NCBI GenBank assembly: GCA_964555095.1
Contig: CAZKRA010000013.1
Coordinates: forward strand, 1-15,679
DNA from: an uncultured Candidatus Saccharibacteria bacterium
GTDB taxonomy: Bacteria; Patescibacteriota; Minisyncoccia; Minisyncoccales; CAYPLZ01
Direction of reading: 5' to 3'
DNA length: 15,679 nucleotides
The position numbers and the translations under genes are program-made. How positions within the stretch are numbered: position 1 is the first letter of the stretch; the number at the start of each line of letters is the position of its first letter. Below are positions 12,170 through 15,100 of the stretch, in pieces. The notes under the pieces were generated by a model. The model did no database searches and was not told the origin of the DNA. It saw nothing but the letters and a program-made list of their open reading frames with translations.

Positions 12170-15100
12170 TTATGGTGTAATTTCTTTCCAATCTGGAAGA
12201 GGCAAACTTCCTTTAATGAGTTTTTCTTCTTGATCTTTTCTGTTTAAGTTATCTTCTACTTCTATCTTAATCCATGTTTTAACTGCAGGAATTGTAGTTG
12301 ATGCAATTTCTTTTCCTTTTCCAAATTCAGAATAAATACCATCATCCTCTTTCACTCTCCAAGTTCTATTTTTAATCACTTCTCCTCCCTCTGACTCTTT
12401 TGAAAAGTCTTTAAAATACATTACTTCCTCTACTGAAGGTTCCCTTATTTCATTACACTCTTTCCAATTATTTTTAGTTAACGAACATTTAAAGCCCGCT
12501 TCAATTTCTTTTTTTACAGTAAGAGAGCGAGTAGCAACATCTGAGATATAAGAGTCTTCTACTTTTAATTTAATTTCATATTCTCCTGGTGAGGGTATAT
12601 CTTTTTCTTGGAGAGTACATTCTTTACTAAAACCAGCAACCTCCCCACAACTAAGAAGATTATAATTATCTTCTGATTTTTCTTTTATATACCAACTTGT
12701 TTTTTTAATATCATTATTGTTCTCAAGATTAGTAGAATCATTATCAGTAGAATTATTTACTAATTTATAAAAACAAGGATCTAAATCAGAAGTAGGTTGA
12801 TAAGTTATCCAATCGTCTTTTTCACACTTACCTCCTTTGCAATTAGAAGTATCACAAGAAATTTCTGCATTAGGAATATTTTCTTTTTTTATTGTTAAGT
12901 TATCACTTTTATCTTTTATTATATGAATTTTATTAGGTTTTATTTGAATTGCTTCCTTGTTTTTAGTATCAGTGGTTACTCCAACAAAAGAGTTTTTCTT
13001 TTCATTTTTAACTTCAAGAGAATAAGTTAAAGTCTTATCTCCCTTGTTTCCATATATTAAAGTATCGTTTTCAGAATTTAAATTTAAGATAGCTTCTCCA
13101 GTAGAATATATTTCAGTATCTAATTTAAATTGTCTTATATTGTCTTTAAATTCTTTCATTGGGTCTATTAAATTAACTGAAAAAGGTTTTTTTAAATCAG
13201 AAGTACTTACAGAAAAAGATTTATTTTCTTTTTTACCTTCTACTGTAAAGGTGTCTTTGGTTCCGTTATTCATTTTAATATTTTCCATCACATTTATTGA
13301 CTCTCCTGTAGGAACATAACTAGTATAGCTTCCGCTGGTATCTCCCTTAATAGTAGTTTTGTAATTTGCGGGAGGTAGAAGAAAAAATTGAGGGTTTTTA
13401 TCAGAAGAACGAGAAGGAATTGGTAAGGGTACAATATCAGAAATTTCATATTTATTATCAGCAATTGACAATATTTTTCCTTTTTCATTTTTAAATTCAA
13501 TTGTCCCTTCAGAATTAAAATATACCCCTGCTAATAGATAAAGGGCTCTACTTAAAGTTCCTCCTATTTCTCCTATTGTAGGTATATTAGTAGCTCTCTT
13601 TATTTTAGAATAAGGCATATATACTAATCTATCTAAAGGATTTTCTCCTTTCCATTCCCTCATATCTCTTCCACTTCTCTCCTGCCATTTTGAGAAATTT
13701 CCCTCTTTATCTATAAATATGTAACTATATAATAAATTTTTATTAGGGATAGAATCAGATGATTCAGCAAACAAAGTAGTCCCCATTCTAATAATATTAT
13801 TATCATAAAGATATATTTTTGTTCCATTAGTAGTCTCTTCAATACTATCTATAGTCACAGTATGATTGGTAATTCCTCCAAATTGACTTAACATATATAA
13901 CATACCATATTGAGGAGGATTTTTATTAAGATCGTTTTTAATATTATTTATAAATACTTGCGCTGCACTAGAACCGCTTCTACTTCCTGCTTTATTTGTT
14001 AACCAATAATTATCAGATTTAGACCAATGTTCAAGAACTATTCCTGCAAACGTTGACCTTGCATTCATAGCTTCTATGTGATCTAGTAACTTTATCCCTT
14101 TTTCATTACTATTTTCTGATAGACCAGCAATTCTATCAACATCCCTATCATAATTTTCTTTTTTATCATCTCCGTAATAAAATTGAAGTGTGCTTAAAGC
14201 CATTCCTGCACACCGGCCCGGAATATCTGATTGTAAATAATAAATAGGAAAATATAAAAGCGCTCCGGGGTTAGGTCCTAATCCCCAAGCACCACTGCAC
14301 ATACATACATCACAATTACCAAAACTTTCTTTATAGTGTCCATAATTTTGAGGATCGTTTATTGATTTATTTACACAATCACCATATGTGAGTTTCCCTC
14401 CCTCAGGATTATCAAAAGAAAATCCATAATTCCACTGTAACCATCCAGTGCACCTTTCCTCTGATTGTTCTTCCATTAAATAAGAACAATCAAATGAGCT
14501 TTCTTTTTTTGTAGTAAAAGATTTTTGTTCTCCTTCAACATCTTCTGCTTTTGCTTTAAAGTAATAAGTAGTATCATAGTCTACATTAATTTCGTGAGAA
14601 AAAGTTCCCGTATATTGTTTTTCTTCTAATGTAGTAATATTAGTAAGATAATTTGGATTAGTTCCCCACTTAAAATAAACATCTACTTTTTCTTCTTCTC
14701 CGAGGCTAGTTAGTTCTCCTTTTAAGGTAGCTTTATTTTTTTCTACTTTTGCTATTTTACCTCTTAAATTTTTAGTGCCATAATCTATTGAAGCAGAATA
14801 AGACTCTACTTGAGGAGACTCTTCGATTATATAATAATTTTCTTCAATTTTACCATCTTCTCCGTCTTCGCCTGGATTACTAGCAAAACCTCCCTTATTC
14901 CCTTCTCCTTTTTTTGTTATACAGTAATCCCCTACTAAATAATCTTTATTGCACCATCCTTCACCATTAGATCCATCTTCATTATAACCACTACCAGCAT
15001 CACCACCCTTCCCTCCCTTAGAAAGAGTACCTTTTGCATCTTCTCCGATAGCAAAACTATCAGAACGAAAAAGAGCAGTACTTCCATTATAAGTTCCACC

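Follow-up and report, generated by a model that had tools for sequence, protein, structure and literature searches.

A putative, divergent C39-like cysteine peptidase domain of a hitherto unannotated family lies within a giant surface protein of a small-genome bacterium

The window, by which we mean the whole stretch of DNA analysed (15,679 nucleotides), makes up the whole of contig C13 in a 645-kb genome of 99% completeness. One end of it is occupied by part of the gene for a giant protein on the minus strand, whose reading frame remains open to the end of the window and continues beyond it. The ends of contigs C13 and C9 overlap by 55 nt in frame, and the complete secreted protein has 1377 aa, the N-terminal 208 aa of which are encoded on C9. 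A 68-kb contig also encodes the 1377-aa protein that spans the C13/C9 junction (P0003). Residues are numbered here by the 1169-aa translation of the window part (P0001), in which Q483, C490, H606 and D626 are the residues of interest, while Q464, C471 and H587 of the initial annotation match the numbering of an ATG-started 1150-aa ORF (12170-15622). On C9, the frame 5' of the first ATG encodes basic residues, about 17 hydrophobic residues, the sequence A-Q-M-V-S-A and then a Cys, a succession that resembles a signal peptide. No ATG, GTG or TTG was found ahead of this signal-peptide-like stretch on C9; a signal peptide there would therefore need a rare start, and that of the giant protein may begin at a codon such as ATT, ATC or ATA. 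A glycine-rich domain of the ALK/LTK type gave the sole solid Pfam match in the giant protein (PF12810; E=8.2e-8, 33 bits against a cut-off of 24.5). Genes nearby include uppP, a MATE transporter, FKBP, dinB and an S41 peptidase, among others, and no gene for a double-glycine-leader substrate was evident near that of the giant protein. The features of the locus are listed in Table 1.

Table 1. Coordinates of the giant-protein gene, the conserved module and the candidate catalytic residues in the window.
Feature	Position	Strand	Details
Giant-protein ORF, window part	12170..15679	-	1169 codons + stop; from the ORF list and translation
Glycine-rich domain, ALK/LTK type	14954..15478	-	Pfam PF12810, residues 68-242 of P0001
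Conserved module	13397..14491	-	Cys-rich N-terminal cap, C39-like core and first downstream beta-rich part; match of the family profile (alignment A3) to the window's genome, 13397-14491, E=5e-116
Cys-rich cap	14270..14491	-	motifs W-N-Y-G-F-x-F-x-N-P and Y-K-x-x-F-G; 6 Cys in the giant protein
C39-like catalytic core (putative)	13790..14224	-	hhalign match to C39 profile columns 16-128
Gln codon	14231..14233	-	P0001 Q483 (earlier Q464); no family feature
Invariant Cys codon	14210..14212	-	P0001 C490 (earlier C471); G-x-C-x-G-M motif; putative nucleophile
Conserved His codon	13862..13864	-	P0001 H606 (earlier H587); putative general base
Asp-Asn-Asn codons	13796..13804	-	P0001 D626, N627, N628; end of I-Y-x-Y-D-x-N; Asp putative third triad member

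The initial annotation had pointed to a constellation of Gln, Cys, His and Asp at 13796-14233, with the order and spacing of papain-clan peptidases of the C39 type. The plus-strand translation of this interval is riddled with stops; the minus strand is the coding strand, and its translation has QSDIPGRCAGMALSTLQFYYG as its first residues and GITNHTVTIDSIEETTNGTKIYLYDNN as its last. Both peptide strings that had been cited are present in this translation, the Gln stands 7 residues ahead of the Cys, and the His stands 20 residues ahead of the Asp of YDNN, all as had been described, with Cys and His separated by about 115 residues. The disulfide-rich segment reported just upstream was overcounted: it was said to hold 8 Cys in about 65 residues, and six were counted (P0001 398, 410, 435, 456, 459 and 461). 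A Q..C...H...D pattern alone is trivial in a protein of such length, and what places this one beyond chance is the conservation of its residues in homologues.

Searches with the module in Pfam, NCBIfam and the PDB sequence set returned no relevant match, and the window's domain had no C39 or C39_2 Pfam match even at E<=10. When 1.84 billion representative proteins were searched exhaustively with phmmer, 22 homologues were obtained at E<=1e-3, four of them below 1e-30 with 36-41% identity across about 300 residues. Scans of genome and metagenome contigs yielded 13 loci, distributed among Chloroflexota/Dehalococcoidia (five), Altiarchaeota (three), Aenigmatarchaeota, Thermoplasmatota and Verrucomicrobiales (one each) and metagenome contigs (two). 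A word-indexed homologue search led by the window protein, alone or in an alignment, returned almost nothing besides that protein itself; when the search was led by a consensus-like member, 16 proteins were recovered. Named homologues are mostly called 'hypothetical protein', and three names derive from other domains of the same protein. No relatives were found in viral contigs, and a fold search of BFVD gave nothing useful. Thirty-seven non-identical domain segments were aligned, originating from Altiarchaeota, Aenigmatarchaeota, Dehalococcoidia, Thermoplasmatota, Verrucomicrobiales and metagenome proteins without assigned origin, and the homologues in these archaeal and bacterial phyla are 20-40% identical. 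At the level of sequence, these data demonstrate a real, conserved and hitherto unannotated domain family.

The region shared by the homologues exceeds 13796-14233 and comprises a cap, the core with Cys, His and Asp, and a beta-rich part, which together form a module of about 350 aa common to about 37 homologues. The cap, about 75 aa in length, has the fuller consensus W-N-Y-G-F-x-F-x-N-P ... Y-K-x-x-F-G-x-C-x-V-C, in which G26, N31, P32, Y56, F60 and C66 are invariant in alignment A3, and at least 300 more conserved beta-rich residues follow downstream of the core. The core is always coupled to the N-terminal Cys-rich cap and to C-terminal beta-rich domains. The partner domains outside this unit vary from protein to protein and include TSP3 repeats, NosD/beta-helix, PKD, TIG, Big_1/invasin, FG-GAP, Calx-beta and thioredoxin/rhodanese domains. 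Given this variety of partners, the module acts like a cassette within extracellular proteins of many domains, and architectures of the adhesin type have the unit of cap, core and beta-rich part shuffled among them. The domain is internal to the 1377-aa secreted protein and is not fused to an ABC exporter. The signal-peptide-like N-terminus and the adhesin-type partner domains together indicate that the predicted setting of the C39-like domain is extracellular.

The module is rare in the phylum of the source organism. There is one copy in the window's genome, none in the 60 nearest genomes, a set that includes the other genome of the same genus (82% complete), and the module was present in one of 400 other genomes sampled from the phylum. 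A distant homologue from the same phylum (L123) keeps the C, the H and D-P-N. This rarity, taken with the patchy spread across archaeal and bacterial phyla, points to domain shuffling or horizontal transfer of what appears to be a rare, mobile cassette.

Cys, His and Asp are the most highly conserved residues of the domain family. The Cys is kept in all 37 non-identical homologues, as are the Gly residues at positions -2 and +2 from it; the His is kept in 36, the exception being a truncated fragment; and both the Asp and the Asn two positions past it are kept in 35 of the 37. The Gln column has Gln in one sequence, the window's own protein, and 14 other residue types occur there. Of the four residues put forward as catalytic in the initial annotation, Cys, His and Asp are thus conserved, and the Gln proposed to line the oxyanion hole is a chance residue. 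The number of Cys residues per domain ranges from 1 to 14, and a homologue that has the invariant Cys alone (P0034) argues that this Cys is not conserved as one half of a disulfide. Judged from the alignment, the Cys does not owe its conservation to a structural disulfide, and it would fit a free, functional thiol. Among the 37 homologues, we saw neither a conserved fourth ligand beside Cys, His and Asp nor a conserved acidic residue between the Cys and the His.

The family core was compared by hhalign with alignments of true family members drawn from same-phylum genomes, namely Peptidase_C39_2 (19 sequences), Peptidase_C39 (17), Transglut_core (18), NLPC_P60 (12) and, as an unrelated control, NUDIX (19). 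BtrH_N (PF14399) had no members in 151 genomes or in the controls. The core matched C39 with Prob 74%, P=2.8e-5 and a score of 37.5 over 104 columns (template columns 16-128 of 155), and in this alignment the Cys, His and Asp of the family are in register with the catalytic Cys, His and Asp, and the Y-Y-G-D past the Cys helix falls on the Y-x-G of C39. Against C39_2, P ranged from 7e-4 to 2.7e-3 (8e-4 for the family core), with His and Asp in register under the default local setting and the Cys as well under the greedy setting. There was no similarity to the transglutaminase core (PF01841; P=0.84), to NlpC/P60 (PF00877; P=0.69) or to NUDIX (P=0.61), and neither of the first two gave a Pfam match. 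Reversed templates scored 12.9-13.0, none of 60 column shuffles (highest score 18.6) or of 60 eight-column block shuffles (highest 28.8) reached the C39 score, and none of 60 column shuffles reached the C39_2 score. Two sub-branches of the family each matched C39, with P=2.9e-5 and 3.1e-3. The C39, transglutaminase and NlpC/P60 alignments, which are shallow, did not detect one another (P 0.18-0.5); since these families go undetected by one another at such depth, the signal is specific to the C39 branch. No member of the family had a Pfam C39 or C39_2 match above the gathering score. The best member, L014 from Verrucomicrobiales, matched Pfam Peptidase_C39_2 over columns 3-143 of 143 with E=0.0089 and 17 bits, below the gathering score of 24. 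By these comparisons, profile similarity is confined to C39 and C39_2. The papain-clan, C39-type core of the initial annotation is thereby upheld for Cys, His and Asp, which are in register with C39/C39_2, and not for the Gln, which is present in one of the 37 homologues; the transglutaminase-like enzyme offered there as an alternative found no support in the comparison with PF01841.

A first AF2 model, built from 14 sequences for a target of 367 aa, was poor (pLDDT 42.8). A better model of medium confidence was obtained with 26 sequences and a trimmed 309-aa target (pLDDT 62.5, pTM 0.67); its sheet region reached pLDDT 85-93, and the N-terminal third, including the cap, stayed below 50. In the 309-residue numbering of this model, Cys86 is placed two residues ahead of helix 88-97, His202 immediately ahead of strand 204-211, and Asp222 directly after strand 215-221, so that His and Asp flank a beta-hairpin. 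By predicted secondary structure, Cys, His and Asp are therefore placed as in papain-fold enzymes, as had been anticipated, and the order of Cys-helix, His-strand and strand-Asp in the model fits the active-site arrangement of the papain fold and C39. Foldseek searches of the PDB with both models gave no match at E<=1e-3, with TM-scores of 0.25-0.37. The top ranks for both models were mostly papain-fold proteins (IdeS/Mac-1, staphopain, GtgE, NTAQ1, Gsp amidase, cathepsin B, Tae2 and a papain-like toxin), none of them significant, and solved C39 structures were absent from the top 50. These Foldseek matches lean towards a papain-like fold.

Taken together, the evidence favours as the likely explanation a divergent C39-like peptidase domain with Cys-His-Asp, of the papain fold and clan CA, that is displayed extracellularly within a giant surface protein. 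The domain is probably an active peptidase; its fold, catalytic activity and substrate are inferred. Nucleophilic attack would come from the invariant Cys in G-x-C-x-G-M, at the start of a helix, the invariant His that opens a beta-strand would serve as the general base, and the Asp that closes the next strand (I-Y-x-Y-D-x-N) would orient the His. An oxyanion Gln is typical of C39 and papain. Because the family does not keep this canonical Gln, its oxyanion hole would need another source, which might be the backbone or a further conserved residue, for example one in the Cys-rich cap, where the conserved Asn of F-x-N-P is a candidate. Extracellular proteolysis is the most likely role, either as self-processing of the giant protein or as cleavage of surface proteins of a partner or prey.

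Several other explanations bear on the same observations. The Cys-His-Asp of a papain-like fold might carry out acyl transfer or amidase chemistry, such as transglutaminase-type cross-linking, cell-wall amidase activity or deamidation. One triad and one fold serve many chemistries, amidases and deamidases (NTAQ1, Gsp amidase and Tae2) are found in the top Foldseek lists, and the oxyanion Gln of the C39 type is missing. The similarity is specific to C39 and C39_2, however, with none to the transglutaminase core or to NlpC/P60, so that the readings as members of these two families were rejected, and the archaeal members have no murein, contrary to a general role as peptidoglycan amidase. On balance, we regard chemistry other than proteolysis as unlikely, yet deserving some weight. 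Somewhat less credit is due to a non-catalytic role for Cys, His and Asp in a binding or scaffold domain, as a structural site that binds metal or as a site of another kind, which would make the protein a passive adhesin. All three residues are frequent Zn ligands, adhesin-type modules make up the protein as well as its relatives, and no fold match was significant. On the other hand, the three residues correspond one-to-one with the catalytic residues of C39 across about 105 columns, the helix motif G-x-C-x-G-M-S-x-x-S-L and the hairpin motif H...YD are typical of C39-like active sites, and no conserved fourth ligand was seen; we consider a metal-binding or scaffold site improbable.

The invariant Gly-x-Cys-x-Gly also resembles the Sm-x-Nu-x-Sm elbow that carries the nucleophile in an alpha/beta-hydrolase, here one with a Cys nucleophile. 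Such enzymes have the order nucleophile, acid, His, whereas in the family the Cys is followed by the His and then by the Asp, and no acid is conserved between the first two; moreover, a helix and a loop rather than a strand precede the Cys in the AF2 model, and no alpha/beta-hydrolase was among the Pfam or Foldseek matches. We rejected this reading on triad order and predicted secondary structure, and accord it scarcely any probability. An equally negligible probability attaches to a chance resemblance of motifs in a lineage-specific, fast-evolving surface protein that has no functional domain here. The region is unrecognised by curated libraries, and the Gln and the '8 Cys' proved to be chance or wrong; against this, homologues at 20-40% identity in several archaeal and bacterial phyla keep the same residues invariant, and these conservation data refute it.

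The usual view of giant surface proteins in small-genome bacteria and archaea is that they are passive adhesins, and most of their sequence lacks annotation. Small-genome carriers of the module, such as the source organism and Aenigmatarchaeota, are presumably episymbionts. The conservation of a C39-like domain with Cys, His and Asp suggests that the giant protein is probably a tethered enzyme, beyond an adhesin. More tentatively, and at slightly less than even probability in our estimate, the domain may represent a new clan-CA family, consisting of a C39-like core with an obligatory cap and a beta-rich tail, that travels as a cassette from one giant surface protein to another in bacteria and archaea and acts as a tethered protease, cutting the giant protein itself or proteins of a partner's surface. 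If active, the domain would bring to giant surface proteins a concrete, testable activity, namely self-processing or the cleavage of partner proteins, and it would also contribute a family that escapes the present Pfam and NCBIfam models.

Among known systems, the Altiarchaeales homologues raised the question of the hamus, or grappling hook, whose subunit, of 97 kDa, is a beta-sandwich protein that has an S-layer-like N-terminus, cysteine being unmentioned in the paper that describes it (PMC4460559). Nothing links that published protein to the module, and the identification of the homologues as hamus subunit was dropped. IdeS/Mac-1 (C66), staphopain (C47), GtgE and NTAQ1 resemble the module in having a Cys-helix and a His-bearing beta-sheet; they differ in that they show no detectable sequence similarity and gave Foldseek matches of E 0.01-0.2 and TM <=0.37, none significant. 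The closer likeness is to C39 (PF03412), which comprises the bacteriocin-processing domains of ABC transporters and stand-alone forms. Shared with it are the order of the residues, the Cys at the start of a helix, the helical insert, the His that opens a strand and the Asp that closes the next one, and the C-G-x-x-x-L...Y-x-G of C39 can be set beside the G-x-C-x-G-M-S-x-x-S-L-x-F-Y-Y-G of this family. Unlike C39, the module has neither a match to the Pfam model nor a conserved oxyanion Gln, its spacing in the window's protein is 20 residues between His and Asp and about 115 between Cys and His, and it carries an obligatory cap, rich in Cys and about 75 aa long, as well as the conserved downstream beta-rich domains; it stands in the middle of giant secreted proteins, whereas C39 stands at the N-terminus of ABC exporters. 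C39_2 (PF13529) is similar by hhalign, and L014 covers its whole profile, below the gathering score, but the window's domain itself has no match, and architecture and the extra cap set the module apart. A typical C39_2 member is encoded elsewhere in the window's genome (C1:48879-49328, 74 bits). In Omnitrophota, giant proteins with embedded C39 domains have been described, and these domains were proposed to cleave the giant protein or other substrates (bioRxiv 10.1101/2023.11.21.568195). A C39-type cysteine peptidase domain within a very large secreted or surface protein is the likeness to the present case; standard C39 models recognise their domains, which are close to the protein termini, whereas that of the window is internal and belongs to a separate, far more divergent family. 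What is new is thus the family, which has no curated model and no detectable solved relative, while the kind of enzyme, a C39-like member of clan CA, is known.

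The window makes up an entire contig, one end of which overlaps the end of contig C9 of the same genome by 55 nt; the shared sequence is in frame and falls within an acidic, cysteine-rich repeat (C-G-D-G...E-E-C-D). A 68-kb contig on record encodes a 1377-aa protein that crosses this window/C9 junction, indicating that the giant-protein gene is interrupted by the assembly only. On C9, where the giant protein begins, the first ATG is preceded by a stretch that resembles a signal peptide. No in-frame ATG, GTG or TTG was found upstream of this stretch, and, judging from the sequence, its translation could start only at ATT, ATC or ATA. 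The called full-length version, P0003, begins at an internal ATG and therefore does not contain the hydrophobic segment.

Coordinates of the giant-protein features and of an ordinary Peptidase_C39_2 protein in the same genome
Feature	Contig	Position	Strand	Remark
ALK/LTK-type glycine-rich domain	window	14954-15478	minus	PF12810, E=8e-8; same protein as the peptidase domain
Conserved region after the catalytic core	window	12173-13396	minus
Contig-end overlap	window	15625-15679
Contig-end overlap	C9	30411-30465
Giant-protein N-terminus, including the signal-peptide-like stretch	C9	29696-29800
Typical Peptidase_C39_2 protein (L017)	C1	48879-49328		74 bits, 354-aa frame

Conservation across the family is not confined to the catalytic core, as approximately 300-400 residues C-terminal to it are also kept in the family loci of other genomes and metagenomes (L004-L016), with the motifs G-S-A-D-A-x-V-E-D, Y-x-L-P-x-G-D-Y and T-S-D-x-x-K. 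Neither the window region nor its equivalents in L004-L016 matched any Pfam model; the region probably consists of beta-sandwich domains that accompany the peptidase core. Only one further genome of the phylum (400 sampled) carried a relative of the module. This relative (L123, G090:C3), which ends in the canonical D-P-N, is housed in a 933-aa protein together with Calx-beta and Big_7 domains.

In two homologues of the Dehalococcoidia-type group, P0009 and P0011, the N-terminal part contains thioredoxin and rhodanese domains (PF00085, PF00581, PF13098); Cys-rich stretches and the C39-like module lie C-terminal to them. The presence of such domains in some members hints at thiol redox handling within the same protein.

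Known relatives of the C39-like peptidase domain cleave at Gly-Gly. Since the glycine-rich domain of the giant protein had no match in the other family members examined, a connection between it and the adjoining peptidase domain is speculative. Ordinary C39_2 proteins also occur in this group of genomes: Peptidase_C39_2 was matched in 17 of 61 (the window's genome and 60 relatives), including L017, and these matches constituted the comparison set for the giant-protein module.
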